Shown here one piece after another: positions 1,846-28,437 of a stretch of 28,826 bases of DNA (the first letter of the stretch is position 1; every line of letters starts with the position of its first letter). The position numbers and the translations under genes are program-made. The stretch lies in the IMG/VR virus record IMGVR_UViG_3300043178_000179. One strand, written 5' to 3'. Source of the stretch: a virus. Taxonomy: Duplodnaviria; Heunggongvirae; Uroviricota; Caudoviricetes. The notes beneath the pieces were generated by a model that ran no database searches, had not been told where the DNA came from, and saw only the letters and a program-made list of their open reading frames with translations.

Positions 1846-2130
1846 GTGTCGCGCGGCTCGCTGGCGCCCTGGGACGAACGGGATCGCTACGCGCTCGGCG
1901 TAGCGGTACTCTCGGCGGCCGCGGTCCTCGGAGGGACGGTCTGGCTCCTGCGTCGCCAGGTCGAGCAGGGCGGCGTGTTGCAGGTCCGGGTGATCCACTC
2001 CGCGGACGCGGCGGTGCATGCGAAGCTCGACCGGATCGGGCACGTCCTCGACGCCTACCTGCCCGCGATCCAGAAGATCGCGGACGAGGGGGTGGACCTG
2101 CACGTCCGGTCGCCCCGGCGGCGGGTGTGA
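1846..2130 (+). CDS. Small membrane protein, 94 aa
   Basis: GTG start; hydrophobic YALGVAVLSAAAVLGGTVWLL; its stop overlaps the next GTG start. Confidence 0.7.
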   Translation: MSRGSLAPWDERDRYALGVAVLSAAAVLGGTVWLLRRQVEQGGVLQVRVIHSADAAVHAKLDRIGHVLDAYLPAIQKIADEGVDLHVRSPRRRV

Positions 2131-2648
2131 GTTCAGCGACCGCGCCGAGCCCGATCTACGTCGGGATGATGGCGGCGCTCGGCGCGACGGCCGCGGTGGC
2201 CACCCTCGGCGCGATCGGCGTCGCGGCCGTCGGTTTCGGCAGTTCCGCCAAGCGCCGTACGCCGGGATTCGTTGCCTGGGAGGAGGACACACCGGTCGCG
2301 GTGGTCTTCCGCCGCTTCAAGGACGACGGGGTCATCGCGCTTTTCCCGGAGATTCCCGCGGACGACGTGGGCTTGGCGATGTCATCCTACATGCGCGTCG
2401 GCGAGCACGGCCCGGCCTCGTGGGATCTCATCGCGAGGACGAGGCCCGCCTCGATGGACGAGCCGGACGTCAAGGCGCTCTACGACCTGCTGACGAAGGT
2501 CATCGGCTACCGGCTGATCGTGCGCAGGCGCATCACGTCCGAGATGAGCGCGTTTCGTCGTGCCTCGGCCCGCGGCTGGAACGTCTTGGAGTTGCCGACC
2601 CGGAAGCTCGCGCTGGCTCCGCCCACCGCGCGCCGGGCGCGCCGGTGA
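2127..2648 (+). CDS. N-terminally anchored hypothetical protein, 173 aa
   Basis: TM segment, then GSSAKRR, then a globular domain (VVFRRFKDDGVIALFPE...SYMRVGEHG...IGYRL) that I recall as a recurrent phage/plasmid hypothetical (unverified). Confidence 0.75.
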   Translation: MSSATAPSPIYVGMMAALGATAAVATLGAIGVAAVGFGSSAKRRTPGFVAWEEDTPVAVVFRRFKDDGVIALFPEIPADDVGLAMSSYMRVGEHGPASWDLIARTRPASMDEPDVKALYDLLTKVIGYRLIVRRRITSEMSAFRRASARGWNVLELPTRKLALAPPTARRARR

Positions 2649-2679
2649 GGGCTCACGGCTTCCATCCCCGGAGGTAACC

Positions 2680-3087
2680 ATGAACGACGGCACGCTTCTC
2701 GCACTGACCTTCGCCGGTGTCGGTGTGATCGCGAAGTGGGTACAGACCGGCTCCTGGAACGAGGAAGAGGAGCCGGCCTGGAGGCCGACCCCTCAGCAGC
2801 GGAAGCGGTTCCAGGAGCAGGCCGCTCGTGCCCAAGCCTGGGAACGCGCGCAGGTCGAGCAGTTCCGCCGCGGCGGGCCGTTCGGTGGGCCGAGGAAGAT
2901 CAACAGCGGGTCGTTCGCCGCGGCCGGCCGCTGGAAGGTCGTTGTCGGCGGGTCGATCGCCGCGCGGCAGCGCTGGCCGGCGAGGGTCTACAAGTCGAAG
3001 AAGTCGGCCCAACGCCGGCGCAAGGAGATCATGGAGGCGCACGACTTCGGCGTGCAGACCGTCTGGATCCTGCCCGAGGACGACTAG
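2680..3087 (+). CDS. Basic protein with MNDGT-hydrophobic leader, 135 aa
   Basis: GGAGGT SD at 2670-2675 and ATG 2680; the first 26 aa are homologous to the gene at 15087. Confidence 0.8.
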   Translation: MNDGTLLALTFAGVGVIAKWVQTGSWNEEEEPAWRPTPQQRKRFQEQAARAQAWERAQVEQFRRGGPFGGPRKINSGSFAAAGRWKVVVGGSIAARQRWPARVYKSKKSAQRRRKEIMEAHDFGVQTVWILPEDD

Positions 3088-3112
3088 CCTTCCGCCCCAA
3101 GTCCGGATCGAA

Positions 3113-3118
3113 TACACT
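3113..3118 (+). promoter_or_regulatory. Candidate sigma70-type -10 element (TACACT)
   Basis: TAnnnT hexamer in the short intergenic gap upstream of the gene at 3145; no clear -35. Confidence 0.35.
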
Positions 3119-3144
3119 CTGCCAACCACCCGGAGAACTTTCCC

Positions 3145-4228: not shown

Positions 4229-5629
4229 GTGAGCGCGTCCCCGCTGCTGTTGGCGCTCGTGCCGCACCGCGCCGAGACGCGGGAGCGGTTCGGCATCGCC
4301 ACGGCCGTCGTCGTGGCGGCGCTCAAGAAGGCGGGAACGCTCGCGGCGGGCAAGGGCCTCCAGTGGGTCCAGACCCCAGAGGGCAAGGAGCACCTGTCCA
4401 AGCTCAAGGAGCGGGTGAAGGTCACCGAGGCATCGGAGCGGAAGCGGCTCGACTTCCTGGAGCACAAGGCGCGCACCGCCAAGGGCGAGGACGCGAAGGC
4501 CCGCTGGGCGTCCCGCGCGAAGGCGTTGCGGCGCAAGCTGGACGACGCGCAGCTCGACGTCCAGCTCGCCGAGCAGGGCATCGTGGGCGAGGGCCCGGTG
4601 CTGGAAGCCAAGCGGAACCTGCTCGCGGCCGAGTGGGAGGACGCGGACGATGCGCGGAAGGCCGAGGTCGAGGCCGAGGTCGCGGACCTGGACAAGCGGA
4701 TCGCGGAGGTCGCTCGTCGCGCGAAGGCGCTGGCGACGGCCGCCGTGGCTCCCGCCGCGCCGGCGGCGACCGCTGCTCCCGCGAAGACGGGCAGCGCCCA
4801 GCGTCGTCGCCGGAAGCCCTCCGAGCTGGAGGAGGTCGACCGGAAGCTGCTCAACGGGATGGGGGGCCTGCGGTTCACCGCGCTGGCACCGCCGGGTCCT
4901 GGTCGGCTTTGCCGGTTGCCGTTCTACCCGGTCGACGACGCCGACGCATGGTCGGGCGCGACGGGGATCGACGAGCCAGGGGACGACCCGATCCTGCGGC
5001 TGACGATCCCGGCGACGCTCTTCACCTCGGGCCCGGTGCTGATGGAGACCCCGGTCCTGGACTGGGCGACCTACCGGCTGGTGGGACTCCAGACGGTGGA
5101 CGACGGCGTGTATATCGGCAGCGCGGCGGCCGCCGGTACCGCCGCGCCCGGGATCACGCTCTCGAACCTGAGCGTCTACAACTCGCGGAGCCTCTTCCTC
5201 CAGGAGGCGCAGGTCCCGGCCTGGACGTACTCGGTGATGCCCGGAGACATGACGGTGGCGCCATCGGGCACGATCGGGGTGTTCGAGCCGGTCACGCACT
5301 ACCTCCGGAGGAAGTCTCGCTTCTTCTCGGGGCTCCGGGACTACCCGGTGGTGAACGACACGGCCTCGGTCCGGATCACGGTACGGGCCTTCACCGGCCC
5401 GGCCGCCGCCGAGGGTGCGGACGGCCTGGCGATCCCCTTCTCCTGCAACCTCGTGGTCGAGATCCTGGAGGACAAGCTGATCGGGGATCCGGTGAACCCG
5501 GGGCCGTACGCCCGCGCCGGTGCCCTGATCAAGGCGGGCACCCGAGAGATGGGGCTCACGACGGGGATCCTGGGTGGTCCTCCCCGCGAGGTCTTCCAGA
5601 TCACCTCCTCGCGCTATCGGCGCGAGTAG
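4229..5629 (+). CDS. Coiled-coil N-terminus plus beta-rich C-terminal domain (candidate jelly-roll structural protein), 466 aa
   Basis: GTG start; heptad-like K/E/A/R region; after NGMGG (4859) alternating-hydrophobic strands (ILRLTIP, YRLVGLQT, ITLSNLSVY, SVRITVRAF, FSCNLVVEIL). The fold is inferred. Confidence 0.8.
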   Translation: MSASPLLLALVPHRAETRERFGIATAVVVAALKKAGTLAAGKGLQWVQTPEGKEHLSKLKERVKVTEASERKRLDFLEHKARTAKGEDAKARWASRAKALRRKLDDAQLDVQLAEQGIVGEGPVLEAKRNLLAAEWEDADDARKAEVEAEVADLDKRIAEVARRAKALATAAVAPAAPAATAAPAKTGSAQRRRRKPSELEEVDRKLLNGMGGLRFTALAPPGPGRLCRLPFYPVDDADAWSGATGIDEPGDDPILRLTIPATLFTSGPVLMETPVLDWATYRLVGLQTVDDGVYIGSAAAAGTAAPGITLSNLSVYNSRSLFLQEAQVPAWTYSVMPGDMTVAPSGTIGVFEPVTHYLRRKSRFFSGLRDYPVVNDTASVRITVRAFTGPAAAEGADGLAIPFSCNLVVEILEDKLIGDPVNPGPYARAGALIKAGTREMGLTTGILGGPPREVFQITSSRYRRE

Positions 5630-5642: not shown

Positions 5643-6137
5643 ATGCGTCCCCGGGCCATGGTGCTGCCACCCCGCCGGACGGCCGTCGTGCTGCCGACGG
5701 TCGCGAACCAGTTCTACCCGGGCTCCCCGGCCTGGGAGACCTTCGTCATGCACCTGCGCTCGAAGGCGGACGTGCTGGCGCTCACGCCGTTCGGCCCGAT
5801 GTCCGAGCCCATGGTCGCGGTCCACCCGGAGCTCACCGCGCCGGCCGAGCCGGACGACCGCCGTCTCGCGCAGGAGGCTCGGGTCCGGATCCGGACCTGG
5901 CTGAGCACGATGGGCTACGAGAAGGTCATCCTTCTGGCCTTCGGTCCCATGATGAGGCATTGGACGGACGCCGCGATCGGCCACCCCGCGGCGTTGCGGA
6001 CGAAGATCCTCCCGGTCCGCAAGAGTCGTCTCTGGGACTCGGTGCTGCGTCGGGACCTCTACAAGGCGGTCGGGATCGACATGTCCCAGCCCTCCGGCGC
6101 CAAGGAGGGCGGCGAGACGATCGCGGAGGTGGCATGA
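5643..6137 (+). CDS. Hypothetical protein, 164 aa
   Basis: ATG 5643; protein-like composition; ATGA overlap with the next gene. Confidence 0.7.
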   Translation: MRPRAMVLPPRRTAVVLPTVANQFYPGSPAWETFVMHLRSKADVLALTPFGPMSEPMVAVHPELTAPAEPDDRRLAQEARVRIRTWLSTMGYEKVILLAFGPMMRHWTDAAIGHPAALRTKILPVRKSRLWDSVLRRDLYKAVGIDMSQPSGAKEGGETIAEVA

Positions 6138-6571
6138 CCGCCCCGTCCGCCACGCCGAACGCCCCCAAGCCGATCGCGATGTTCGCGGAGGGCCCGGTGG
6201 TGATCGGTCGGATCGCGGTCGCCGAGCTGGACCGGGTGGTCCGGACCTCGGCCGATGTCGCGGGCTGGTACCGGTTGAGCCCGACCTGCCCGGCGCCGGA
6301 GTTCGCCGACGTGCTGCTCCAGGTCCGTTGCCGGATGGGCCAGCGGCTGCCCGTGCTTCCCTCGACGCAGGCGACGCTTGTGGTGCCGGAGGACGAGGAC
6401 GAGATCAAGCTGGTGATCACCGTGAGCCTGGCCTACATGGCGGCGTTGCGGGACGCCGCGCGGAGTTTCCGGGCTCCACCTCCGGCGCTCGTGTCGGATC
6501 TCGCGGTCCGGATGGCCGCGCTGGGCTATCTTCGGAACGCGGGCTATCTGCCCACGGAGCGCGAAGGATGA
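6134..6571 (+). CDS. Hypothetical protein, 145 aa
   Basis: GGAGGT SD and ATGA coupling at 6134. Confidence 0.75.
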   Translation: MTAPSATPNAPKPIAMFAEGPVVIGRIAVAELDRVVRTSADVAGWYRLSPTCPAPEFADVLLQVRCRMGQRLPVLPSTQATLVVPEDEDEIKLVITVSLAYMAALRDAARSFRAPPPALVSDLAVRMAALGYLRNAGYLPTEREG

Positions 6572-6768
6572 TCCACAGGCTGGTCCAGCCGCGACCCATC
6601 CGGTTGACGGAGCCGAAGGTGACGATCCCGCACATCGCGGTGGGTCTCTGGGTGGCGACAGCGCTGGTGCTGCTGCTGCCGTCGCCGCGGCAGCCCCGGC
6701 GGCGGCCCGAGGAGCGGGACGTGTTGCAGGCGCACGGGGTGATCATGGCGGCCTTCGGGCTCCTGTAA
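6568..6768 (+). CDS. Small membrane protein, 66 aa
   Basis: ATGA coupling; hydrophobic IAVGLWVATALVLLL. Confidence 0.6.
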   Translation: MIHRLVQPRPIRLTEPKVTIPHIAVGLWVATALVLLLPSPRQPRRRPEERDVLQAHGVIMAAFGLL

Positions 6769-6778
6769 GGAGGAAACG

Positions 6779-7069
6779 GTGGAGAAGATCACGGTCGGTG
6801 ACGGCTTCATGGAAGGCAACAAGCAGGGCGTGCAATGGGAGCGCGCGGCGCTCGGTCTGCCGCCGACTGCTTCTTCGGACGAGATGCTCGCCGAGACTCG
6901 GCGGGTCGGCGCCGAGCGGTACCGCTCGCGCCTGCTGGAGACCGGGAGTGCCTACCTGGACGGCTGGAGGGTGCCGGAGCACGCCCGCGCGAGCTTCGTG
7001 CTCGGGAAGGCCCACATGCAGTGGGCCATGGCCGAGACCCTGGCCGTCCTGACCGAGAGGGCTCACTGA
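6779..7069 (+). CDS. Hypothetical protein, 96 aa
   Basis: AGGAGG SD overlapping the previous TAA; GTG start. Confidence 0.75.
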   Translation: MEKITVGDGFMEGNKQGVQWERAALGLPPTASSDEMLAETRRVGAERYRSRLLETGSAYLDGWRVPEHARASFVLGKAHMQWAMAETLAVLTERAH

Positions 7070-7071: not shown

Positions 7072-7758
7072 ATGGAAGGCTCGACCAACGTGATGACGGA
7101 GCTCGGCTTCCCGGCCGACTACGGGTGGGGCGTCTACGACGACCTCCGTGGGGAGCCGCGCCGCCAGGCGGAGGTCGCGGCGCAGCAGCGGAAGTGCGGC
7201 ACCTGCCAGCGGTTCATCGTCCGGCCGCCGGAGGTCGACCTCGCCCGCGCCGCGCGTCCCGCCGGGGCTTGTGGCCCCGCGCAGTATTGCTTCGGCGGGG
7301 CGGTCCGGGGGAGCTGTACCTACCACGGCCAGCAGCGGGACAGCACGGACCTCTGTCCATTCTATCGCCCCGGCGGTCCCGGGATCCGCGGGATGGATGG
7401 CCAGGTGGCCGGCTCGCTGTCGCAGGGTTCCGCGAACGCGGCGTCTCCCGCCGCTCCTCCACCGGCCCCGTCGATCCCGACGAACGGCTGGGTGCTCTTT
7501 GCCGTCGCGCTGCTGACCGTGGCCGGGATCCAGCTCGCGCGAAGCGGGAGTCCGGCCCGCCGGCCCCCGCCGAAGGGCGGGTGGCTACCGGTGCAGATGG
7601 CGCGCTACTTCGGAGGTTCCTCGGTGCGCGCGGCGGACTTCCTCGACGCCATCGAGGAGCACGGCTTCGACCGGGCCGCGTGGGCAGCGGGCCTCGGTCC
7701 CGACGCCACCCAGGCCGTCTGGCGGTTCCTCGAAGGACGCCGTCGGCGCCCCTCCTGA
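7072..7758 (+). CDS. Six-Cys putative metal-binding domain, TM helix and short C-terminal domain, 228 aa
   Basis: C-x2-C-x21-C-x5-C-x8-C-x12-C; NGWVLFAVALLTVAGIQL followed by RSGSPARR. Confidence 0.75.
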   Translation: MEGSTNVMTELGFPADYGWGVYDDLRGEPRRQAEVAAQQRKCGTCQRFIVRPPEVDLARAARPAGACGPAQYCFGGAVRGSCTYHGQQRDSTDLCPFYRPGGPGIRGMDGQVAGSLSQGSANAASPAAPPPAPSIPTNGWVLFAVALLTVAGIQLARSGSPARRPPPKGGWLPVQMARYFGGSSVRAADFLDAIEEHGFDRAAWAAGLGPDATQAVWRFLEGRRRRPS

Positions 7759-8306: not shown

Positions 8307-8867
8307 ATGGACGGTCGCCTGCCCGCGCTGGCCGCACCCCTGGCGATGATCGCCATCGCCACGGCCAGACGCTCCCGCCGCGGCTCCTCGGCCCGTTCCC
8401 CTCTCGACCGCTTCCTGGCCATCGTGGAGGCCGGCCTCGGAGCCTTCCCGGACGAGATACCCCAGGAACTCACCCGTGCGCTCGACGCGGAGTTCCGTTT
8501 TCTCGGCGTGGGTGGGAGCCGCGCCGTCTACCGGCTGGACAAGGAGACGGTCGCGAAGCTGGGCGACGCGGTGGCGAACGAGGAGGAGTACGACACCTGG
8601 AAGCGCTTTGGCGAGAGGATGGGCTCCGACGACCTCGTCCCGGTGCGAGGTATCTACGCCGATGGCCGGGTCTTGGTCATGGACTACGCTCGTCCCGTGA
8701 CCCAGGCCCGCGCCGCGTCCCCAGCCGTGGCCGCCCGGATCGACCGCGCACGGGGCCGGCTCGACGCCATCGGCCTGGACAGCCTCGACGCGCGGTTCGA
8801 CTTCAACTGGGGCTGGCACCACGGGAAGGTGAAGCTGTTGGACTACGGGAGCGGCCCCGCCGACTAG
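8307..8867 (+). CDS. Minimal protein-kinase-like fold protein with hydrophobic leader, 186 aa
   Basis: Gly loop GVGGSRAVY, beta3 Lys (VAKL), alphaC Glu (NEEEY), catalytic D..N (DARFDFN) and DFG-equivalent DYG. Confidence 0.7.
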   Translation: MDGRLPALAAPLAMIAIATARRSRRGSSARSPLDRFLAIVEAGLGAFPDEIPQELTRALDAEFRFLGVGGSRAVYRLDKETVAKLGDAVANEEEYDTWKRFGERMGSDDLVPVRGIYADGRVLVMDYARPVTQARAASPAVAARIDRARGRLDAIGLDSLDARFDFNWGWHHGKVKLLDYGSGPAD

Positions 8868-8899: not shown

Positions 8900-8905
8900 G
8901 GACTG

Positions 8906-10651
8906 ATGAAGCCCTCCCGTCTCCGCGGTGCCCGCGCGCTTCTACCGGACGAGGTCGAGCCGCTGACCGCGAAGGTGCTCGGTGAGCTGCGTGCCGCCGC
9001 CGGTGGATTCCTCGGCCAGCGCCAGTGGACGGGCTGGCTCTACCGGGGGATGTCCCGCGCGGAGTTCGGTCGTCACTGGGCGGACGGGACCATGCACTGG
9101 ACGGTCGACCGCCCGCTCGCGGAGGATCACGCGGCTCGGTATCCCGACGGCGTCGTGATCCGGGCGAACGCGAAGACCCTGATCGGGCTCGGCATCGGGA
9201 TCGGCCCGGACGAGGGGGTCCGGGAGGACCTCGGCGTCACCTCCTGGGAGAGCTCGCTCCAGGAGGGCGGGTCGCTCTCCCTGGTCGGGCCGCTGGAGAG
9301 CGTGCGGGCACGCGCGGCGATCGCGCCGCCGCGAGGGAGCCACGCCGATGCCCCCGACTCCAGGGGGATCCCGGTGCCGTCGAAGGCCACCAAGGGACTG
9401 AGGGCCGCGCGGCGCTTCCCGGACAGGACGCTGAGCGATCTGCCCGACGACGAGATCGAGGCGCGCCCCGGGGACATCGTCTTTCCCGTCCGTGGCGCCC
9501 TGATGCTGGCCGGCGTGATCCGCGGTGGCCGGGTGATCGGTTGGCTCAACGTCGGGGGCTACGGCTACCGGGACGTGCTCGCGCTCTACCCCGAGGTGGA
9601 TTGGCACCGCGGGGAGTCACCCCCCTGGCGCCACGGCCAGGACCTGGAGGTCCAGGGCGACCGGTTCGTGGCCCGCGAGGGCTCGCGCAGCCGAAAGGCA
9701 TTGAGAAAGGCTGCCCGCAAGGGCGTGCCCCCTGGCGTTTCGCGGGGGCCCAATCGTCCTTTCGACACGGGTGCCATTGGAGAGCCCAACTGGGGCCGTA
9801 TCGGCTTCGCTTCCACGCTGGCCGAGGCGACTTCGAGGTACAAGCAGTTCGAGACGGAGCAATCTCGTGAGGCGCGTCACTTTCTTACCCGCCTCGCGCG
9901 CCTCCAGTTCGACGAGGAACGCATTGCTGGTCGCGGCCGCGGCTCGCGGACCAACGGCGGCGGGGAGGAGCAGCGGCCGACGGCGCTGGTGGTCCAGCGG
10001 CAGCTGCTGGAGCCGGAGGTCATCGAGGAGCCTTTTGCGGGCACCGCGGTGCCCCAGCTTCGCCGCCGGGCCGACGTCGCGCTGCCCGACACGGTGCTCT
10101 GGGGGCTGATCGCGTCTCAGGGCGACGTCCTCTCGGGGATGACGTTCGAGCAGGCGGTGGTCGAGGACCCACGCCGGATCGACGCGCTGATCTCGCAGCA
10201 GATCGGCCTGGCCTTCGCGGAGGTGTTCGGCGTGCCGGCCGGTCCCGAGGCCGGAGAACTCTACCTGATGGGGATCGACTTCGCGCGGCAGGCGCACGGC
10301 GGCGAGCTGCCGGTTCGCGCGCTGGTGAGCCTCGTCGAGGAGAACATGGACCGGGCGCTCTTCGCGACGTTCCCGCGGATGCCGGTCTTCGCCAGGGCAG
10401 AGCTGCGCCGTCGGCTTCCCGTCTTCGACGCCGCGCTCGACGCCGGCGCGGCCATCGCGCGTCGCGCCCAGACGATCGCCCGTGCCCGGGGGCTTGGCGA
10501 GGACAGCCAGGCCTGGCGGGACCTCGCGGACTACCTCGAAGGGCACAAGGACATGATCCGGCACGCGCTGGCCCAGGGGCTGCCGGGTCCGGTCGCGCGG
10601 CCGATGCTGCCGCTTGGGCGCCGGATGCTTCCCGGGCCGCGACGGAGGTAG
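8906..10651 (+). CDS. Multi-module protein, 581 aa; N-terminal region weakly ADP-ribosyltransferase-like
   Basis: WLYRG...HWT.D...A...A...GVVI resembles ART-fold strand motifs (weak). The modules are separated by RGSH, EGSR and RGSR. Confidence 0.7.
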   Translation: MKPSRLRGARALLPDEVEPLTAKVLGELRAAAGGFLGQRQWTGWLYRGMSRAEFGRHWADGTMHWTVDRPLAEDHAARYPDGVVIRANAKTLIGLGIGIGPDEGVREDLGVTSWESSLQEGGSLSLVGPLESVRARAAIAPPRGSHADAPDSRGIPVPSKATKGLRAARRFPDRTLSDLPDDEIEARPGDIVFPVRGALMLAGVIRGGRVIGWLNVGGYGYRDVLALYPEVDWHRGESPPWRHGQDLEVQGDRFVAREGSRSRKALRKAARKGVPPGVSRGPNRPFDTGAIGEPNWGRIGFASTLAEATSRYKQFETEQSREARHFLTRLARLQFDEERIAGRGRGSRTNGGGEEQRPTALVVQRQLLEPEVIEEPFAGTAVPQLRRRADVALPDTVLWGLIASQGDVLSGMTFEQAVVEDPRRIDALISQQIGLAFAEVFGVPAGPEAGELYLMGIDFARQAHGGELPVRALVSLVEENMDRALFATFPRMPVFARAELRRRLPVFDAALDAGAAIARRAQTIARARGLGEDSQAWRDLADYLEGHKDMIRHALAQGLPGPVARPMLPLGRRMLPGPRRR

Positions 10652-10654
10652 GCG

Positions 10655-13723: not shown

Positions 13724-13742
13724 GGGCCTGGTCGGAGGTCGG

Positions 13743-15704: not shown

Positions 15705-15712
15705 GAGGCTCC

Positions 15713-17079: not shown

Positions 17080-17085
17080 GCGGCC
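17047..17085 (+). repeat. 39-bp junction direct repeat, copy 1 (identical copy at 17484-17522; degenerate copies near 17961-17985 and 18437-18461)
   Basis: ATCAAGCGCCAGTGGCCGAGGATCCTCCGATGAGCGGCC occurs identically twice. The core GTGGCCGAGG(A/C)TC(C/G)TCCGATGAGC is present at all four junctions. Confidence 0.95.
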
Positions 17086-17516: not shown

Positions 17517-17522
17517 GCGGCC
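17484..17522 (+). repeat. 39-bp junction direct repeat, copy 2
   Basis: Identical to 17047-17085. Confidence 0.95.
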
Positions 17523-20264: not shown

Positions 20265-20273
20265 GAGGTCCGC

Positions 20274-20921
20274 ATGGCGAGTCGACGCGGCCACCTGGTG
20301 GAGATCGAGCCCTCGTTCGGGGACGTGCTGCACGAGTACCACGCCGGGCAGGCCGACCCGATCTATGCGATCAGCAGCCGGTGGCATGCCGGCCATTTCG
20401 AGCGCGGCAGCAACATCGGCCTCGACTGGCGTTCGGACCACGGCGAGGGCTACTTCATGCGGCTCTCGGACGAGGAACTTGCGGCGCTGGAGCGCCTCGC
20501 ACGGGACGTCCACAATGGTCGGTACCGGCCGTCCCGCGACGAGGATGATCCGAACGAGGACGCCGCCGCGGGCCAACTGGAACTGCTCCGCTACGTCCTG
20601 TACCTCCCTTCCGGTGCGGTGGAGCAGGGCTCGAAGTCCCGCGGCAGCCGCGCACGTCGCTTCAAGGTGTCCGCGTCCTCGCCCTGGGGCACCTACACCG
20701 CCGGGGTCTTCGAGGCAGAATCGCCGGCCGACGCGGTCGAGATGGCGCGGGAGAGCTACCGCCGCTCCACGCTTGGCCGCGAACTCAAGGACGTCGGAGC
20801 CTTCCGTTTCTACGTGACGGCCAGCGCGCCGATCGGGAAGCCGTTCGCCTCGGAACAGGAAAGCTCGGAACAGGAGGGCTCCAAGTCCCGCCACCCGCGC
20901 CCGCCGGCGAAGCGGCGGTGA
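20274..20921 (+). CDS. Two-module hypothetical protein, 215 aa
   Basis: AGGAGG SD overlapping the previous stop; the modules are separated by QGSKSRGSRARR. Confidence 0.8.
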   Translation: MASRRGHLVEIEPSFGDVLHEYHAGQADPIYAISSRWHAGHFERGSNIGLDWRSDHGEGYFMRLSDEELAALERLARDVHNGRYRPSRDEDDPNEDAAAGQLELLRYVLYLPSGAVEQGSKSRGSRARRFKVSASSPWGTYTAGVFEAESPADAVEMARESYRRSTLGRELKDVGAFRFYVTASAPIGKPFASEQESSEQEGSKSRHPRPPAKRR

Positions 20922-22171
20922 CCCGCGCGGGCAGTCGCTACGTCCCCGGCCAGCCGCTCTACCACGGGACGAGCCCCAACGCGGTGCCGAAGATCCTCCG
21001 CGCCGGGCTCCGCCCGGGCCGCAAGGGGAGAGACCCCGTCACGCTCCGCGCGGCGCTGGCCGCGATGGCTCCGTCCGGGCGATGGTGGGGCCCGTACCAC
21101 CGGCGGATCGCGGCGGCGAAGCGCGCCGGCGACACGGCGGCCGAGTCCGCGGCCTATGACGAGTGGGACGACTGGTACATGGGCACGTTCACGGAGCGGG
21201 CCGCCGCCCCGATGGGCGGGTACATCTACGTCACGACGGAGCTGGAGGAGATCCTGACCCGCTCGGCTTCCGGCGAGACCGAGTACGTCTTCGAGATCGA
21301 GCCGACCGGCCGGCTGATCCCGGACGAGGACTGGATGGGCGCGGCCATGATCTGGGCGTCGAGGGTGGCGCGGCCACGCCCTGGCACCGGCCCACAGCGC
21401 CTCTGGCGAAACCGCATCCTGTCCGACGCTCGGGCGGCCTACGACCGCCTGAGCGAGATCGAGGCGCGGCTCCCCGAGCAGCTCAAGAGGGACCTTCGGG
21501 GTGCCGAGGAACACGGAGCGGAGGAACGGTTCGAGTGGCAGGCTCTCGCGGGGAAGGCCGTCATCCGGCACCTGGAGAGGACGACCTGGGGCCGCGCGGC
21601 CCTGGAAGCCCTCGTTCCCTACGCCAGCACGCTGGCCCACGAGGGGTCGCCTCGCCTGACCAGGCTCTACCGCATGGAATCGCGGCAGCACCTCGGTCCG
21701 AGGGACGAATACGGGATGGCACCGGTGACCTTCCGCCGGGAGCTGGTACTGGACCGCACGCTGGCCGGGTCACCGTCCCGCGAGGGCTGGTACGAAGATC
21801 CCGCCCCGGTGATTGAGCGGCATGGATCGAATCGCATCCTCCGCGCGCCGATCCCGGTGCCGCTGCCCTCGCGGACGCTCTGGGTTCCGCGCCAGCTGAT
21901 CGCGCTAGAAGCCCTTCCCATCGACACGATCCGTTTGTGGCGCAAGGACGACGCCGCGGGCCAGCCTGACCGGCTCGCCGTGGTCACCCGTAGCGACTCC
22001 TTCCTGGAGGTCCTCCGCTTTCGCTGGAGCCGAAATGGATGGAGCCAGAGGCAGAGGTTCAAGGCCGAGCACCCAGCGGACGCCGCCGTGTTCGGCCCCG
22101 CGGGTATGGACACCGGGGATCGGTCCGTGCTCGTATGGCTCGATGCCCACCGTCCCTGGGGAGAACCGTGA
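20918..22171 (+). CDS. ADP-ribosyltransferase-fold (Tpt1/KptA-like HGT motif) domain plus C-terminal domain paralogous to the next gene, 417 aa
   Basis: LYHGTS....KIL..GLRPG ... YIYVT ... YVFEI, typical of H-class ART folds; GTGA coupling. Confidence 0.7.
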   Translation: MTRAGSRYVPGQPLYHGTSPNAVPKILRAGLRPGRKGRDPVTLRAALAAMAPSGRWWGPYHRRIAAAKRAGDTAAESAAYDEWDDWYMGTFTERAAAPMGGYIYVTTELEEILTRSASGETEYVFEIEPTGRLIPDEDWMGAAMIWASRVARPRPGTGPQRLWRNRILSDARAAYDRLSEIEARLPEQLKRDLRGAEEHGAEERFEWQALAGKAVIRHLERTTWGRAALEALVPYASTLAHEGSPRLTRLYRMESRQHLGPRDEYGMAPVTFRRELVLDRTLAGSPSREGWYEDPAPVIERHGSNRILRAPIPVPLPSRTLWVPRQLIALEALPIDTIRLWRKDDAAGQPDRLAVVTRSDSFLEVLRFRWSRNGWSQRQRFKAEHPADAAVFGPAGMDTGDRSVLVWLDAHRPWGEP

Positions 22172-22560
22172 TGGACGACGGTACCTTTCTCGCGCTGTCC
22201 GCGGCATCGGCGTGGCGGGATGTCACGGCCGAGTCCAGGGTTCCGGGCCAGCCGGCCGCCTTCAATGCCCCGATCCCCATCCCGCTGCCGAGTGGCCGGA
22301 CGCATTGGAAGCCCGGCGAGGAACTCGGGCTTCCGCTGCTGTACGACAAGGCTGGCTGTCCCGCCCGATACCGCATCTGGCGGCAGGACGACGCCAGTGG
22401 TCGACCGACCGCGCTCTATGCGCTCGCACGGGTCGAGGACTACGTCGCCTTCGCGCACTACAAGTGGTCCCCCACCAGGGGGACCTGGTTGGCCGAGCAC
22501 GTCACGGTCGTCCCGTCCGAAGATCACCCCTCGGATCTGCCGCCCGCTCGCAGGAAGTGA
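22171..22560 (+). CDS. Protein with short MDDGT leader and APIP.PLPS domain, 129 aa
   Basis: TGATG coupling; MDDGTFLAL; the domain is homologous to the C-terminus of the 20918 gene. Confidence 0.75.
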   Translation: MDDGTFLALSAASAWRDVTAESRVPGQPAAFNAPIPIPLPSGRTHWKPGEELGLPLLYDKAGCPARYRIWRQDDASGRPTALYALARVEDYVAFAHYKWSPTRGTWLAEHVTVVPSEDHPSDLPPARRK

Positions 22561-22584
22561 CCTCTCTCGGGTCGGGCCACGAGG

Positions 22585-23181
22585 TCATGCCGTCTCCTCC
22601 CACGGGGGGACGCCGCCCTCCTGGATCCATCGCGTCATGGCGACGAGCCGGGCGACGCCCGCCGTCTCGGCGGCGGTGATCACCGCCTCCCACCCCGCTC
22701 CCGGGGGCGGGGCGGGCTCGGCCACGCCCGGGACCGGCGGCGGGTGGTTCGTCCACCGGGCCCACGGGGCCCAGGGGCTCTCCTCCGCCGCTCGCTGCCG
22801 CGCTGCCTGCTCGGCGGCCTGCGGCGCTGCCGCAGCGCGGGCTTCCGCCTCCTTCATCGCCTCTCTCTCCTTGTAGCGGCGGAGCATCTCCGCCGTCCAC
22901 GCTTCCAGGGAGGGAGGGATGTGGCGGCGCGGGATGCCCCCGGCGTCCCGCAGGGTGATGGGCTGAAACTGCCCCTCGGCCTGACCTCCGGGCCACTCGG
23001 CCCGGATCCGGACGCTGGCCCAGGGGTCGGCCACCGTCTGGTCCCAGGTCCACGCCGCATCCGGGGGGACGCGCCGTGCGAACGTCGCGTTCCCGACCTT
23101 GACGACGGCCCACAAGCTCTCGCCGTCGCGCAAAGAGCCGTGGCTGGCGCTCAGCCAACCGCCCATGAGTTCTACCCGCAT
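22585..23181 (-). CDS. Hypothetical protein, 198 aa; the only convincing minus-strand gene
   Basis: GGAGG SD (CCTCC at 23186-23190 on +) precedes the ATG at 23181. The + frames here are junk; the protein has a beta-like N-terminus and an Ala/Glu helix. Confidence 0.75.
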   Translation of the reverse strand: MRVELMGGWLSASHGSLRDGESLWAVVKVGNATFARRVPPDAAWTWDQTVADPWASVRIRAEWPGGQAEGQFQPITLRDAGGIPRRHIPPSLEAWTAEMLRRYKEREAMKEAEARAAAAPQAAEQAARQRAAEESPWAPWARWTNHPPPVPGVAEPAPPPGAGWEAVITAAETAGVARLVAMTRWIQEGGVPPWEETA

Positions 23182-23256
23182 GGTGCCTCCCATCCAGAAG
23201 ACGCTGTATCACATGGCTCCTGACACCGGGGGCTGGACCTGACCATGTCCCCGGGG

Positions 23257-23262
23257 TAGGCT
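23257..23262 (+). promoter_or_regulatory. Candidate -10 element (TAGGCT) 6 nt before GTG 23269
   Basis: Lies in the divergent intergenic gap; spacing fits a leaderless start. Confidence 0.3.
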
Positions 23263-23268
23263 CGGAAA

Positions 23269-23463
23269 GTGCCTCTGCCCGGAACCCGGTTCTGGTACGT
23301 GCTGACCGTCGCGGATCGGCTCGGCGTCGAGGTGATGACGGGGCAACCCTCGATGGACCCGCTCACCTGGGCGATGAAGGCGGCCGCGACCGGTGACCAG
23401 GCACGCTTCGAGCGGGTGGTCGGCCAGTTCGTCCCCGAGCCCGGCACGTCGAGATCCGGTTGA
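23269..23463 (+). CDS. Small hypothetical protein, 64 aa
   Basis: GTG start; G/C-ending codons; fills the gap before 23537. Confidence 0.5.
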   Translation: MPLPGTRFWYVLTVADRLGVEVMTGQPSMDPLTWAMKAAATGDQARFERVVGQFVPEPGTSRSG

Positions 23464-23536
23464 TGCTGGAGCGGCTGATCGGCCCGCGAGGTGGGTTGCC
23501 ACCCCGTCTCTGCATGGACCCGCGGGAGTTGGGACC

Positions 23537-24454
23537 ATGCCCCTGATCCGCCGCGAGAAGGAGTGGCTGGGCGACCCTTCTCGGGCCGCGCGGCTCACGC
23601 AGCGGGACTTCGCGGCGCTGCGCGCCGTCCGAATCGGTCGAAATCGGATCCCGCTGAGAGACCTGGCGCCGAGCGAGATCCGGTACTACTTCCGCGGCTG
23701 GACCCCCGCGGACCACGAGGTCGCCATCGCCCGTGCGGTCGACCTCGCGAACGCCGCGGCCCACCGCTACAACCGGGCGCTCGCGGTCGCCTACCGGATC
23801 TACGGGGAGCGGGGCCCGCTGATCTCGGGAGTCGGCCAGGACCACTTTCCGGCCGAGGTGAAGGAGGGCCTGCGCGCCTCGCTCCGCGCGCATGGCGACG
23901 CCCAGATGGCGGCCGAGGTGCACTGGCTGGCGGCCCACGGCCGTCGTCGTCGGTTCGCGGACAGCGGGTGGCCCGAGAAGATGGTGAAGGCTGGCTACTA
24001 CGGCTATGGTCGCCGCGAAGCGATCGCACCTCCGCGCCGCGGCTCGAAGGCGCTGGACCTCGACGCGCTGCTCCGAAAGGCGCAGCGCCAGTCGAAGAAG
24101 GCCAGGTCGAAGAAGCCCCCCGGCGAGGTCCGTCCCTGGACGTTGGTGCGCCACATCGCGCCGGGGTCCTCCGTAACCGAGTCGCTCTACTCGCTCGCCC
24201 CGGCGGACGCGGTCGCGATGGCGTACCTCATCGATCGCTACGGGACGGGCGCGTCCGCGGATGTCGCCGGCCTGATCGTGGATGTCGAGGCGGGCCGCGA
24301 GCCTTTGCAGCTCGCGCGGGAGCGGCTGGAGGAGGCCCGTGCGCTGGTGAAGCCGGCTCGGATGCGTCCCGAGGTGGCCAAGATCGTGCTCCGCGACGGC
24401 CGCGCCTGGTTTGGCTTCCCTCGCGGTGGAAGCCGGTCGTCCGGCTTCGGCTGA
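23537..24454 (+). CDS. Two-module hypothetical protein, 305 aa
   Basis: GGGAG SD; the modules are joined by APPRRGSKALDLDALLRKA. Confidence 0.8.
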   Translation: MPLIRREKEWLGDPSRAARLTQRDFAALRAVRIGRNRIPLRDLAPSEIRYYFRGWTPADHEVAIARAVDLANAAAHRYNRALAVAYRIYGERGPLISGVGQDHFPAEVKEGLRASLRAHGDAQMAAEVHWLAAHGRRRRFADSGWPEKMVKAGYYGYGRREAIAPPRRGSKALDLDALLRKAQRQSKKARSKKPPGEVRPWTLVRHIAPGSSVTESLYSLAPADAVAMAYLIDRYGTGASADVAGLIVDVEAGREPLQLARERLEEARALVKPARMRPEVAKIVLRDGRAWFGFPRGGSRSSGFG

Positions 24455-24482
24455 GCGGCCTGAGCGGACTGCGGTCGCGGCC

Positions 24483-25610
24483 ATGCAGCTCAGCATCGAG
24501 CACCTCCTCCGCCGCGCGAGGCCGGACGACGGGCGGCTCACGATCCTCTCGTCCGGGCTCGGGCGGGACAGCTCGACGATGGTCTGCCTCCTCTTGGGCG
24601 GGAAGCTCTTGGCGGAGGGGCGGCCGTTGCGGCCATCGGACGTGGACGCCGTGGTCTTCTCGGACACGGGCATGGAGTGGCCCTTCACGTACCGCCTGGG
24701 GGAGCGCACGCGACGGCTGCTCGCGAAGGCCGGCGTTCCGTTCTACGTGTTGGCGAAGCCCCCGGCGAGGGACTGGCGGCCATACAGCCGCGGGCTCCGG
24801 GAGCGCTACGAGGCGATCCGCGCGGCCATCGCGAAGGCTCGCCGTTCCGGCGACGAGCGCCTGGCCTCGCACCTGGAGCACCGGTCCCAGCACCCGGCCA
24901 GCCACGACCCGGTATTCGAGGCTGCGACGGGCCAGCCCGCGCAGGTTCCACCCGCGCCCTGGCTGGAGCGGACCTGGCCGTCGATCGCCGCGAAGGCCGC
25001 TGGTGGCGGCTACCACCACCGCGCGCCGCTGTTGCCCAGCTTCGCGGAGCGCCGTCGGATCCCGATGCGGGCGAAGCACGAGTGCACGCTGCACCACAAG
25101 ATCCGGCCGATCCAGAGCTTCGCGGCCGACCTCGCGGCCGAGCGGTTCGGTGTCCCGTCGAACCGCGCCTGGGCGGCCGAGGTGACGGCCGGCCGTCGGC
25201 CTCCTCACCGGATGCTGATCGGCATCGCGGCGGACGAGGCCAGCCGCGCGACGCCGAGCGAAGAGCCAGCCTTCGTCAAGGTGTTCCCGCTGATCGAGAT
25301 GGGGATCTCCAAGATGGACGAGGAGCCGATCTTGCGCCGCTGCGGCTTCGAGGACGCGCGCAAGAGCGGGTGCTGGACGTGCATGTACCAGCCGATCTCC
25401 TGGTTCTGGGCGCTCCGCGAGGTGTACCCTGATCTTTACGCCGAGGTGGTCGAAACCGAGCGCCGCGCGCTGGAGCGCAATCCCTCCTTCTACCTCAAAG
25501 GCTCGGAGCCGGTGGACGTACAGGTCCGCCGATGGCGCGCAAACAACCCGGACGCCACGGTAGACTCGGTCCTCGACAAGGACTACAAGCGTTGCGGCGG
25601 AGGAGTCTGA
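24483..25610 (+). CDS. Phosphoadenosine-phosphosulfate (PAPS) reductase-family / adenine-nucleotide alpha-hydrolase protein, 375 aa
   Basis: PP-loop SSGLGRDS, FSDTGME, CT..HKIRPI, IGIAADEA.R, FPLIE and KSGCWTC motifs. Confidence 0.8.
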   Translation: MQLSIEHLLRRARPDDGRLTILSSGLGRDSSTMVCLLLGGKLLAEGRPLRPSDVDAVVFSDTGMEWPFTYRLGERTRRLLAKAGVPFYVLAKPPARDWRPYSRGLRERYEAIRAAIAKARRSGDERLASHLEHRSQHPASHDPVFEAATGQPAQVPPAPWLERTWPSIAAKAAGGGYHHRAPLLPSFAERRRIPMRAKHECTLHHKIRPIQSFAADLAAERFGVPSNRAWAAEVTAGRRPPHRMLIGIAADEASRATPSEEPAFVKVFPLIEMGISKMDEEPILRRCGFEDARKSGCWTCMYQPISWFWALREVYPDLYAEVVETERRALERNPSFYLKGSEPVDVQVRRWRANNPDATVDSVLDKDYKRCGGGV

Positions 25611-26362
25611 TGTCGAAACCCGAACTCAAGAACTACCTGCGCCTGATCCACGCCCACGGCGGCGCGCCGTTGGACCAGGCCGCCCGCGCTTTTCAGCGGC
25701 GGATGCTGGAGGACTGGCCGGATCCCGACGGCATCTTCCAGGACGTCGTGGAGCGATACGGCGATGCCCTGATGGCCGCGCTGGACGCCGAGGGAGTGCT
25801 CGACCGCCTGGAGGATGGCGCCCTGTTCGACCGGGCCTTCCGGCTGCTGGTCGAGTCCTACCCAGGGGTCCCCGCCGGCTCCCTCGCGGCCCCCTCCGCG
25901 CTCTTCGACCTCGCGGAGCAGTACGTGCGCCGGGTGATGGACATGGCCGCCGGCTTCGTGCTGCGCGGCGAGCCGGTGGCCCCGGTGCTCTTCGTGTTCG
26001 CCGCCGACGGCGACGAGCGGCTGGGCGTCGGGATCACCCCGCTGGGGCCGCAGAAGTCCACATGGCCTGCTGTGATCCAGGAGATCATGCGCCGAACCGA
26101 GGGCTTCGGCCACGCGATCGTCTCGGAAGCCTCGGAGGTGAAGGAATCCGCGGCGTTTCGTCGTCACCTCGCCGCTGGCGGTGGTCCCTCCGACTTTCCG
26201 GACCGGCAGGACGTCATTCTCCTCGTCCTGGAGCTTCCCGGTCGCCGGAGGATCTTCACCCGGACGATCTCTGCTGACCGCTCCTCGGTCGGCCCGATCG
26301 AGGAAAGTCGGGTCCAAGCGAGCCGCTGGGAGGGAGTCGGCGGAACGGGTGGACACAACTAG
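25610..26362 (+). CDS. Hypothetical protein, 250 aa
   Basis: GGAGGAG SD and TGATG coupling. Confidence 0.8.
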   Translation: MSKPELKNYLRLIHAHGGAPLDQAARAFQRRMLEDWPDPDGIFQDVVERYGDALMAALDAEGVLDRLEDGALFDRAFRLLVESYPGVPAGSLAAPSALFDLAEQYVRRVMDMAAGFVLRGEPVAPVLFVFAADGDERLGVGITPLGPQKSTWPAVIQEIMRRTEGFGHAIVSEASEVKESAAFRRHLAAGGGPSDFPDRQDVILLVLELPGRRRIFTRTISADRSSVGPIEESRVQASRWEGVGGTGGHN

Positions 26363-26374
26363 CCCCGCATCGGT

Positions 26375-26380
26375 TATCCT
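26375..26380 (+). promoter_or_regulatory. Candidate -10 element (TATCCT)
   Basis: TAnnnT in the gap upstream of the 26405 gene. Confidence 0.35.
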
Positions 26381-26404
26381 TGCGGGAACACCCAGGAGCC
26401 CACG

Positions 26405-26734
26405 ATGCTCAGTATCACCAAGCTGCTCGCGAAGGCCAAGCGCGCGACGCCCAAGGGCAAGAAGAAGACCGCCAAGCGCGGCAAGGCGGAGGTCGAGTTT
26501 CGGACCAAGGAAGGCAAGAAGGTCAGCTTCACGCCGAAGGGCAAGAAGAAGCGCCGCGCCTCGGCCCAGCTCACGCCCTACCAGCGCCATGTCCGGCACT
26601 ACATGAAGTCCCGCGGCGTGGTCAAGGGTACGGCCCCCTGGATAGTGCGGCCGATGATGCAGGCCGCAGCGCAGCAGTGGCGCCGCAAGCAGGCGCAGTT
26701 GGTGATCGTCAAGAAGAAGCGCCGCGCGGCCTGA
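26405..26734 (+). CDS. Highly basic histone-like protein with HMG-box-like C-terminal motif, 109 aa
   Basis: AGGAG SD; Lys/Arg-rich; TPYQRHV...MMQAAAQQWRR parallels the 14638 protein. Confidence 0.85.
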   Translation: MLSITKLLAKAKRATPKGKKKTAKRGKAEVEFRTKEGKKVSFTPKGKKKRRASAQLTPYQRHVRHYMKSRGVVKGTAPWIVRPMMQAAAQQWRRKQAQLVIVKKKRRAA

Positions 26735-26746
26735 GAGAGGTCCACG

Positions 26747-27520
26747 GTGGCCCGCGCCGTCGAGTTTGCCCGGCGCCAGGGTGGGGATCGTCCGCCCCGG
26801 TGGCTGGTCGAGCTGCTCTCGAAGCACCTGGGCCGCATCGAGTCCCGCGCGGGCATCCGGTTGCTGCGCGAGCCCGGTTCCGACAAGCTCTGGCCGTTGC
26901 TCGGCTGTGGGAGCTTCGGGTGCGTGCTCGCGCTCGTGGACGTGACGAAGGTGTTGAAGATCACCTCGGACGAGGAGGAGGGCCCGTTGACGGCGCACGT
27001 CCACCGGCTCCAGTCGCGCCAGGCCCGGACGCCGGTGGGCCCGGTGACGCACGCGACGGCCGTCGTCTTCGACGTGTTCCGCTTCCCGGGCAAGGTCGAG
27101 GCGAGCCTCGGCTACCGGACGAACGCTTACGGGATCGTCCGCGAGGCGGTAGACGTGGAGAGCCCGCTGCCGAAGGCCCTGGTCGCGGCCGCCGACGCCT
27201 ACACGGACGGCTGGGAGATGCACTGTTTCGCCCGCGGCGCATCGACGAGGGCCCTCGGGCACCTGATGGCCCGCGGCGCGCTGGAGACCTTGAAAGGAAA
27301 GGGTCCGGACGGTGCGCAGCTCGGCGCGGTGCTGGAGATGCTGTGGAACGATGGCGCGCCGCTGATGGACGCGCACCGGGACAACCTGGCGACCCGGTTC
27401 GTCCCGGGCCCGAACGGGGAGCGCCCGGGCCAGGTCCTGCTCTTCGAGTACGGGGCGAGCCCTTTCTGCCCGGTGAAGTTCCGCGAGATCGGCAGCCTCA
27501 AGGCCGCGAGCGTCGCGTGA
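26747..27520 (+). CDS. Protein-kinase-like fold protein, 257 aa
   Basis: LGCGSFGCV Gly loop, VLKIT..EE, catalytic DAHRDN, and EYG at the DFG position. Confidence 0.75.
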   Translation: MARAVEFARRQGGDRPPRWLVELLSKHLGRIESRAGIRLLREPGSDKLWPLLGCGSFGCVLALVDVTKVLKITSDEEEGPLTAHVHRLQSRQARTPVGPVTHATAVVFDVFRFPGKVEASLGYRTNAYGIVREAVDVESPLPKALVAAADAYTDGWEMHCFARGASTRALGHLMARGALETLKGKGPDGAQLGAVLEMLWNDGAPLMDAHRDNLATRFVPGPNGERPGQVLLFEYGASPFCPVKFREIGSLKAASVA

Positions 27521-28437
27521 TCGAGAGCTGTCCCCGCCAGTCCGTCCTGATCCCGCGGATCGAGAGGTCGCTTGGCGTGCGCCTTGGCAACGTCCAGTGC
27601 CGGATCGTGGATCAGGCCGGCATGGAGCAGGCGATGCGCCGCGCGGGCTGGTCACGGAACGAGACGCTCGGGGTCGTCGGCTTCCAGATCGGGAGCCGCG
27701 TCTACGTCCGGAAGGACGCGCCCTGGACGGTGCTGCACGAGCTGGTCCACCGCTCCGGGGTGAACGCCGACCGACTGAACCGGTTCGTGGCCGAGGGCTT
27801 GACCGAGGCGATCGCGCTGGAGCTCAAGGAGAGCGCGGCCGAGCACCAGCCGACGTACCCCGAGGAGACGCGGTGGGTGCAGCAGGTGCTGTTGGCGAAG
27901 CTCGGGATGACGGCGGTCGAGCTCGGGTCTCGGCTCGCGAAGTCCTCGAACCCGCCGCGGACGCTGGCCGCGCTCCTGGCGCGCAAGGACCCGTCGCTCG
28001 ACGAGGGGGTCTTGGCGCGCAGCCTCCAGCCCCAGCGTCCGGAGCGCCCGGCCATCGGGAGCCAGCTCGGCTTCGGCCCCAGCCTCTCCCCGACCAGGGA
28101 GCCGCCGCCGTTCTACCCCGACATCCCCCCCTGGAAGAAGGAGAGCCCGGCGGCGTTCGCGCGCCGAATCCGGGGCGCGATCGGCGAGATGACGAAGGGC
28201 AGCCCCGCCCGCTACGGCCCTCACGGTGAGCTGCTGTCGTACAGCTTCACGGTCGCGCCCGACGGGACCTACCAGGACACCGCCGGCCGCCGGGGCCGGT
28301 GCGTCGGTGGGCGTCTCCAGGTGGAGGGGTCGGCTGCCACCACCTCGGCCGAGGGCGACCTCGTGGGTACGGTCGCCATCGGGCTGATCCTGAGCGGCGT
28401 CGCGCTCGGCTTGCCTCGTCTCTTCGGCCGGAGGTGA
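27517..28437 (+). CDS. Zincin (gluzincin-like) metallopeptidase domain with C-terminal TM anchor, 306 aa
   Basis: VLHELVH followed by EGLTE (third ligand) and YPEE; C-terminal LVGTVAIGLILSGVALGLP; GTGA coupling. Confidence 0.75.
   Translation: MIESCPRQSVLIPRIERSLGVRLGNVQCRIVDQAGMEQAMRRAGWSRNETLGVVGFQIGSRVYVRKDAPWTVLHELVHRSGVNADRLNRFVAEGLTEAIALELKESAAEHQPTYPEETRWVQQVLLAKLGMTAVELGSRLAKSSNPPRTLAALLARKDPSLDEGVLARSLQPQRPERPAIGSQLGFGPSLSPTREPPPFYPDIPPWKKESPAAFARRIRGAIGEMTKGSPARYGPHGELLSYSFTVAPDGTYQDTAGRRGRCVGGRLQVEGSAATTSAEGDLVGTVAIGLILSGVALGLPRLFGRR

Follow-up and report, generated by a model that had tools for sequence, protein, structure and literature searches.

A Gly-Ser linear motif at module joints in a Caudoviricetes lineage, with a peptidase and a kinase-like protein as candidate readers

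In this paper we describe a short Gly-Ser (GS) motif that recurs at the joints between protein modules of an uncultured virus of the class Caudoviricetes, encoded on the stretch of DNA held as IMG/VR record IMGVR_UViG_3300043178_000179. The whole stretch of 28,826 nucleotides (28.8 kb, GC content about 71%) is called the window here, and all of its genes that we name lie on the plus strand. This short linear motif, [R/K]-G-S-[R/P/S]-A-[R/K/T], is real and lineage-specific, is selected at the protein level and lies at module joints. For the lineage we used a set of nine related metagenomic contigs (GC 52-72%). What is new is a Gly-Ser motif that is independent of the hydrophobic helix tag with which it often occurs, is tenfold enriched across the lineage, sits at module joints and is accompanied by a gene pair for a peptidase and a kinase-like protein. 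The conserved helix-tailed gluzincin encoded at 27517-28437, or the kinase-like protein encoded beside it at 26747-27520, could be the reader of the motif. Our overall interpretation, in which this lineage-specific motif is read by a common factor with cleavage as the leading mechanism, falls somewhat short of an even chance in our judgement.

Enrichment and specificity of the motif

The initial annotation had listed 20 GS dipeptides as [R/K]-G-S-x-[A/R] joints. All 20 were confirmed in position, on the plus strand and in the coding frame of a called gene. With expected counts taken from 1000-2000 within-protein shuffles, GS is found 67 times in the window where 41.5 are expected (z 4.3), and it ranked third among the 400 dipeptides in a first pass; the reversed dipeptide SG is flat (43 vs 41 expected). 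For the longer patterns the window holds 17 [RK]GS (5.8 expected), 25 GSxA (5.4 expected) and 13 GS[RSP]A (1.3 expected, z about 10). In the first pass GSxA (24 vs 5.4) was the most enriched among 8000 XYxZ patterns (Poisson 3e-9), with Ala two places past the Ser in 24 of 65 GS sites where 8.7 would be expected. The nine relatives show the same excess when pooled, with 277 GS against 207 expected and 37 GS[RSP]A against 5.05 expected (z 14.6). Two control phages, Mx8 (GC 68%) and phiC31 (GC 64%), have no GS excess and not one GS[RSP]A in either.

The excess of GSxA holds when the shuffling is confined to blocks of 10 and 20 residues, so local composition is not its cause. It is also seen when the first 40 residues of the proteins are left out (19 vs 4.5) and when hydrophobic helices and the 15 residues that follow them are masked (21 vs 4.6 in the window). 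Related patterns such as AxSG, SGxA, AxGS, GTxA and ASxA are flat, and so are the one-residue variants GT.., GA.., SS..A, GS..G and GS..V in the pooled relatives. A weak excess of AS[RSP]A and GS[RSP]V is limited to the window, and the Ala can be replaced by Ser only (GS[RSP]S, 16 vs 2.7).

A logo built from 70 sites shows Arg at -1 (2.5 times the expectation), Arg, Pro or Ser at +2, Ala at +3 and Arg, Lys or Thr at +4, with acidic residues depleted from -3 to +4. The form given in the initial annotation is thereby refined to G-S-[R/P/S]-A-[R/K/T], often with Arg or Lys ahead. The claim that the constraint acts on protein rather than DNA also holds. At 42 sites all four Gly codons are used, Ser is encoded 29 times by TCN and 13 times by AGY, Arg 19 times by CGN and five times by AGG, and this diversity extends over four positions, which argues for selection on the protein. 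A DNA-level cause (a recombination site, an overlap with a Shine-Dalgarno sequence or a restriction site) was rejected given these diverse codons and the lack of a Shine-Dalgarno sequence before the interior ATG at 18969.

The motif is located in exposed, non-globular stretches. Helix N-capping was rejected as an explanation, since the sites that were modelled form coil and neither control phage has the motif. Within globular domains many of the plain GS dipeptides show no conservation in orthologues and are chance occurrences. Some of the listed sites, namely 2749, 11811, 15156 and 21824, are GS without the motif context.

Module edges and conservation

The initial annotation placed the sites at domain edges, and 17 of the 20 are indeed at or near a module edge that was defined independently, from homology edges, the end of a ferritin domain, fusion points, AlphaFold boundaries or a change-point in GC at third codon positions (GC3). 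The site at 20930 is simply the N-terminus of its protein, and the remaining two are those at 9335 and 20628. An automatic test counted 9 boundaries out of 40 with a GS no more than 5 residues away, where 4.3 would be expected (P 0.016), and GS alone among 13 dipeptides has P < 0.05. The support from boundary proximity is genuine but modest.

In several proteins the position of the site is kept within otherwise variable sequence. One example is the tagged ferritin/Dps-like protein (15713-16642), which has KLRGSSAH (15791) after its helix and KGSPARGSTCGCGSRA (16277-16321) at the C-terminal edge of its domain. Its ferritin-like domain spans residues 48-186 (more than 1000 matches) and the second GS lies at residue 189. 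The R(R)(G)GS after the helix is retained in five of five tagged Dps homologues, and the homologue P0005 has KGGSAS at the same C-terminal edge, ahead of an extension of its own.

The position is likewise kept in the N-terminal extension of RadC, in a fusion of an array domain and RadC (18456-20264) with three sites. The array domain ends at residue 150 and QGSRATR (18951) follows at residue 166, ahead of a doubled LDxLL tag. The RadC orthologue L010_7392 has an N-terminal helix tag with RRGSRG immediately behind it; GRGSRS (19461, residue 336) aligns with this RRGSRG and so marks the point at which one address module replaced another. VRGSAAGAR (19533, residue 360) aligns with AGSPARGSRA. The LDxLL tag, which is of docking type, is present as a tandem duplicate inside this fusion at 18951-19060 (MDLDSLLARASRTTQMDLDSLLARAL); a single interior copy, LDLDALLRKA, is found in the protein of 23537-24454, where the interior PPRRGSKA (24041) stands directly ahead of it. 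For the latter protein no homologues were found and the assignment is by position only.

A conserved protein made of a coiled coil and a beta domain (4229-5629) has KTGSAQRRRR (GS 4790) in the linker between the two, with helices at residues 23-171 and the first beta strand at 207. The linker is disordered (low-confidence residues 168-225), and GS-x-[AQ]-R-R is found there in three of five orthologues. An N-terminal coiled coil, a disordered Ala/Pro linker and a C-terminal all-beta domain are seen in this protein throughout the lineage. Its model is poor (predicted local distance difference test, pLDDT, of 54) and the matches of the beta domain to single jelly-roll coat proteins, at Z of about 8 (1stm 8.1, 2df7 8.0), are within noise; the model does not allow an assignment to the HK97 fold or to the jelly roll.

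Fusions and paralogues define further edges. The protein of 20918-22171 has two modules, and its GS at 21824 (residue 303) opens the module that it shares with the next gene: residues 303-388 match residues 27-123 of the paralogue at 22168-22560, in which a DDGT-helix leader takes the place of the upstream module. In the protein of 7072-7758 a Cys-rich domain is followed by an internal NG-helix-RSGSPARR (GS 7546) and a small C-terminal domain. This is a fusion, as the Cys-rich domain stands alone in the orthologues L010_4695 and L009_5148 (131-138 residues). Two genes at 11538-13045 carry three copies of one repeat with a GS ahead of each (11811, 12149 and 12443); the copies, encoded by 11538 and 12140, begin 6-11 residues past each GS. 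A fourth copy in L010_5659 has RNQGSAAKL 8 residues ahead of it. This repeat module and the C-terminal domain (residues 402-562) of the protein encoded at 8906-10651 are joined in the other order in a helix-tagged L010 protein (5659-7059), which is direct evidence of module shuffling in the lineage.

The protein of 8906-10651 has 581 residues and three sites. Those at 9680 and 9941 (residues 259 and 346) bracket the segment at residues 263-342 that an unbiased GC3 change-point search returned (GC3 0.69 vs 0.91, Fisher 3e-6). The site at 9335 lies in AIAPPRGSHA. The sequence R-[AE]-A-I-A-P-P-R-(R)-G-S-x-A is common to 9311-9346 and 24014-24052, in two otherwise unrelated proteins; a BLASTP comparison of the 8906 and 23537 proteins found only the AIAPPR(R)GS peptide shared and no domain homology. 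A 207-residue protein (20298-20921) contains EQGSKSRGSRARR (20628, 20643), as recognised from its sequence.

The hydrophobic helix tag

Part of the motif sites close a tag that begins with [D/N]G and continues as a hydrophobic helix; the remainder lie in linkers. The tag consists of a weakly hydrophobic Ala/Leu/Gly helix, a basic cluster and then Gly-Ser, and it is found on unrelated proteins in the window and all nine relatives. It is mostly N-terminal and becomes internal in fused genes, and in the peptidase family it is C-terminal, with its order mirrored. The claim that GS follows hydrophobic leaders is supported: of 66 N-terminal hydrophobic helices in the relatives, 42 have a GS a few residues further on, where 7.4 are expected. 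Typical tags of the relatives read DGT.LALGA.G..ALA.GL-RGSR or RRRGSRA. After masking of the helices, the window still has 21 sites without a helix nearby, and the relatives (seven contigs at that stage) have 33. Sec, Tat and lipoprotein signal peptides have a positively charged n-region ahead of the hydrophobic core and a small-x-small sequence or lipobox behind it. Such a peptide was rejected as an identity for the tag, since the tag's N-terminal side is acidic or neutral ([DN]G), its basic cluster follows the helix and it has no Cys.

The tag carriers in the window are encoded at 2166, 2680, 8307, 15087, 15713 and 22168. The first is a small protein (2166-2648) whose N-terminal helix, with a mean hydropathy of 1.87 over the 18 residues ahead of the GS, is followed by GFGSSAKRR (GS 2238), a fit to GS[RSP]A[RK]. 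The protein of 2680-3087 has a variant leader, MNDGT-helix-WVQTGSWN (GS 2749), which is near-identical to the MNDGT-helix-WWQTGSWN (GS 15156) of the protein at 15087-15704; the latter has the orthologues L002_137 and L005_761, and its gene start was revised to 15087. The protein of 8307-8867 is recognised from its sequence as MDG-helix-RRSRRGSSAR (GS 8382). A helix-tagged basic protein (14638-15057) has GGSSAK and SGSPAR (14854 and 14875) in a disordered basic tail, and its orthologue L005_334 has GGSRAK at the aligned place.

Candidate readers

The initial annotation had proposed to look for a protease encoded by the element, and a candidate was found. The gene at 27517-28437 encodes a zinc peptidase of gluzincin type with a C-terminal hydrophobic helix. 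Its HELVH-x18-E signature, with the spacing of gluzincins (HExxH and a Glu ligand some 18-25 residues further on), is invariant in 40 sequences (H74, E75, H78 and E97), and its AlphaFold model reaches pLDDT 96 over residues 1-180. The structural matches of the model are nearly all zincins (LTA4H at Z 8.1; M1, M30 and M4; DUF4157/eCIS, IrrE, M56 and MA-like clusters). For a possible thermolysin-like catalytic fold, the highest-scoring structures are catalytic domains of M1, M30 and M4, at Z of only 5-8. A Foldseek search of the model against the PDB gave no significant match, and a PDB sequence search with the peptidase and the kinase-like protein returned nothing useful. The homologues of the peptidase form about 98 clusters on contigs of up to 113 kb.

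The peptidase itself carries GS at residues 181, 228 and 271, at the predicted ends of its catalytic domain, helix and small beta domain; two of its sites, in linkers, read KGSPAR (28198) and EGSAAT (28327). Its C-terminal hydrophobic helix is of the tag type, [N/S]GW...G..G..AGA. Across the peptidase family the C-terminal helix has the tag signature (ENGWALGVGTAFLTAGAILLF), and in the alignment GSASRA stands ahead of the helix (e.g. P0244, P0246 and P0239). This is the mirror image of the N-terminal tags and calls into question a simple membrane-topology reading of the tag. A complex prediction of the catalytic domain with the Dps tag junction scored 0.20 against a mark of 0.32, which speaks neither for nor against binding.

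The gene for the kinase-like protein (26747-27520) is translationally coupled to the peptidase gene by a GTGA overlap, and the pair is adjacent in L004, L008 and L010. The protein has LGCGSFGCV, VLKI and HRDN motifs. Its GxGxxGxV, VLKI and HRDN are largely kept in L004_2213, L008_9123 and L010_9233, with variation at the third residue of the catalytic loop (HRYN in L004). Its assignment comes from Atlas language-model features, which match clusters with Phage_T7_kinase and Kinase-PolyVal. The RadC-JAB domain, also encoded in the window, is thought to act on nucleic acids and not on proteins (PMC5512222).

How the motif may be read

Since the same directional motif is found on dozens of unrelated proteins, we infer one common reader, and reading of the motif in trans is probable. 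The motif closes a portable [D/N]G-hydrophobic-helix unit and also sits in inter-module linkers and basic disordered tails; in our proposal a single factor would recognise it on all of these proteins. The reader that we favour is the gluzincin with its C-terminal helix. This peptidase would cut at the motif, so that cargo enzymes would be freed from their helix anchors and fused modules would be separated. Cleavage is the kind of reading that we favour, and it has two precedents, the zincin processing proposed for phage polyvalent proteins (PMC5512222) and the head maturation of giant phages, which one motif directs for many proteins (PMC10052503). A release code is plausible. Cleavage by this particular peptidase is a tentative suggestion, one that we think will more probably fail than hold. 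The complete scheme, in which helix-tethered effectors are freed or split by the helix-anchored gluzincin at [RK]-G-S-[RPS]-A-[RK], as a polyprotein-like release code spread over many genes of a double-stranded DNA phage and possibly gated by the kinase, is less likely still.

Several observations weigh against cleavage. We saw no product of cleavage, no neo-N-terminus and no orthologue that is split. Motif copies at 1855, at 12149 and in L009_2646 lie 3-5 residues from the N-terminus, where a cut would free nothing. In the peptidase family the motif flanks the helix at its [DN]G end, opposite to its place in the N-terminal tags, which does not fit a simple geometry with cutting at the cytoplasmic face. 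Peptidase and motif are linked by co-presence in loci that were mostly found through the peptidase itself. The boundaries used in the proximity test are noisy and its statistic is modest. The conservation in orthologues that the initial annotation anticipated is clear for a subset of sites (Dps, RadC and the 4229 linker); as a class, GS in motif context is conserved no better than other GS (12 of 31 vs 12 of 32). Finally, the strict requirement for Ser, with Thr not tolerated, suits a site of modification no less than it suits a site of cleavage.

This last point leads to a serious rival, although we regard it as unlikely: the kinase-like protein might phosphorylate the invariant Ser of [RK]-G-S-[RPS]-A-[RK] and in this way time or regulate activity, membrane binding or packaging. 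The conserved glycine loop, VLKI and HRDN and the feature matches to kinase clusters agree with this, as do the Ser that neither Thr nor Ala can replace, the basic flanks on both sides with few acidic residues, and the placement of the motif in disordered segments, which is typical of kinase sites. That a phage kinase can have many substrates is known from the T7 kinase (PMC5512222). But known phage kinases act on host proteins rather than on those of the phage, and the protein has no match in Pfam or by PDB sequence search. Pro at +1, which most basophilic kinases disfavour, is found at 11 of 70 sites, and L009 has the motif and the peptidase with no kinase-like gene beside the latter.

The motif might also have no reader at all. 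It could be a passive hinge, in which a basic stop and a flexible Gly-Ser end the anchor helix and start the cargo; it would then travel with shuffled modules, and the joints would record their history. Every modelled site being coil fits with a hinge, and so do the copies at the extreme N-terminus of proteins. Several interior sites demonstrably were tag junctions or N-termini of modules before fusion brought them inside (7072, residue 336 of 18456, 21824 and the repeat starts). A hinge, however, should accept SG, GT, GA and AS, when consistent enrichment is seen for the ordered G-S-[RPS]-A/S only, and it can hardly account for Ala at +3 with a basic residue at +4, for the many sites without a helix nearby or for the absence of the motif from two control phages of comparable composition. 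We give the passive hinge the same low probability as phosphorylation. Chance, by contrast, is very improbable. GS is common in proteomes rich in Gly, Ser, Arg and Ala, about 41 would be expected from composition alone, many of those in globular domains are not conserved, and the sites were picked by eye and selected after looking. Yet none of the 1000-2000 shuffles reaches the observed number of GS, [RK]GS, GSxA or GS[RSP]A, GSxA comes out on top of 8000 patterns, and the excess is repeated in nine other contigs and absent from the controls.

If the motif is read, by cleavage or by modification, it would provide a shared regulatory step for a large set of candidate enzymes of host takeover and anti-defence (RadC, ART-like, Dps-like and PAPS-reductase-like). 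Experiments could then start from a single peptidase, a single kinase-like protein and a site of six residues. Almost all genes of the 29-kb window are without a Pfam or PHROG match, so that a motif common to many of their products is one of few handles on the organisation of these proteins. The motif can serve as a practical rule for dividing such dark proteins into modules, in a lineage of at least about 98 related clusters with contigs of up to 113 kb.

Genes, relatives and database searches

About 40 genes were called from third-position GC, all but one on the plus strand and frequently with overlapping stop and start codons; a separate gene call made on a second contig is in agreement. 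The products have 54-602 residues and at most two to four modules each. Searching Pfam with all 40 proteins gave RadC (E 1e-30) and one sub-threshold ferritin match and nothing more, and PHROG matches are restricted to two proteins, the Dps-like one and the PAPS-reductase. A Megablast comparison of 25 kb with plasmids and phages gave no match, and neither the 4229 protein nor the 15713 protein yielded a relative in a related-locus search of viral contigs. A word-based homologue search with the two proteins tested, 18456 and 23537, returned self-matches only among 5.8 billion proteins. The relatives were collected with two queries, the Dps-like protein in an exhaustive HMMER search and the 27517 protein in a word-based one.

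The orthologue of the 4229 gene and the peptidase gene are about 6-8 kb apart in the relatives, as against 23 kb in the window. The extra segment of about 17 kb (8900-26400) consists of ORFan cargo genes, with ART-like, Dps-like, RadC and PAPS-reductase-like proteins and a five-copy Trp-rich array. Gly-Ala is the most depleted of the 400 dipeptides in the window (66 vs 105, z -4.4); this was rejected as a trait specific to this phage, as Mx8 (L001) is depleted too (z -2.9).

Comparison with known systems

Short processing motifs that contain Gly are found on the core proteins of adenoviruses ((M/I/L)XGX-G), poxviruses (A-G-X) and African swine fever virus (G-G-X), where they are read by clan CE cysteine proteases. 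The likeness to the motif described here is that a minimal Gly-containing motif serves as a virus-wide code on unrelated structural proteins. These are proteases of eukaryotic viruses, however, and no clan CE protease was seen in the window.

Prohead-protease systems offer a second comparison. In SPN3US, gp245 acts at one motif on many unrelated head proteins (PMC10052503). Together with T4 gp21, with its capsid targeting sequence (CTS), and the phiKZ-type systems (PMC10052503, PMC9026906), this resembles our case in having one short motif on many unrelated proteins at the junction of a targeting and a mature part. The removable N-terminal part there comprises 20-254 residues, and extra copies of the motif are found inside propeptides. 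There the motifs have Glu as their last residue and the enzymes that cut them, inside proheads, are assemblin-like serine proteases, whereas ours is a basic Gly-Ser motif, its targeting part is a hydrophobic helix and the candidate enzyme is a zincin that bears such a helix; the likeness is one of sequence only. Among the 40 genes of the window no assemblin-like or HK97-type serine prohead protease was matched in Pfam or PHROG.

We know of no shared cleavage motif described for the polyvalent proteins of phages and conjugative elements. For these proteins, processing by zincin-like metallopeptidases with separation of the modules has been proposed (Iyer et al. 2017, PMC5512222). The effector repertoire here shares with them RadC-JAB, ART, PAPS-reductase-like and zincin domains, a kinase of PolyVal/T7 type as judged by features only, and modules that are shuffled and fused. 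In one relative (L012, 6537-7577) an ART-PolyVal (PF18760) protein carries a helix tag and ALGSRSAQ, a few kb before the peptidase gene, which ties the cargo of the lineage to the polyvalent-protein domain repertoire. But a polyvalent protein is one giant chain that joins 2-15 disparate effector domains, while here the modules are mostly encoded by separate genes for proteins of 130-600 residues, each with its own address helix. If the motif is a site of cleavage or modification, virus-wide processing codes would extend from head maturation to dispersed effector cargo.

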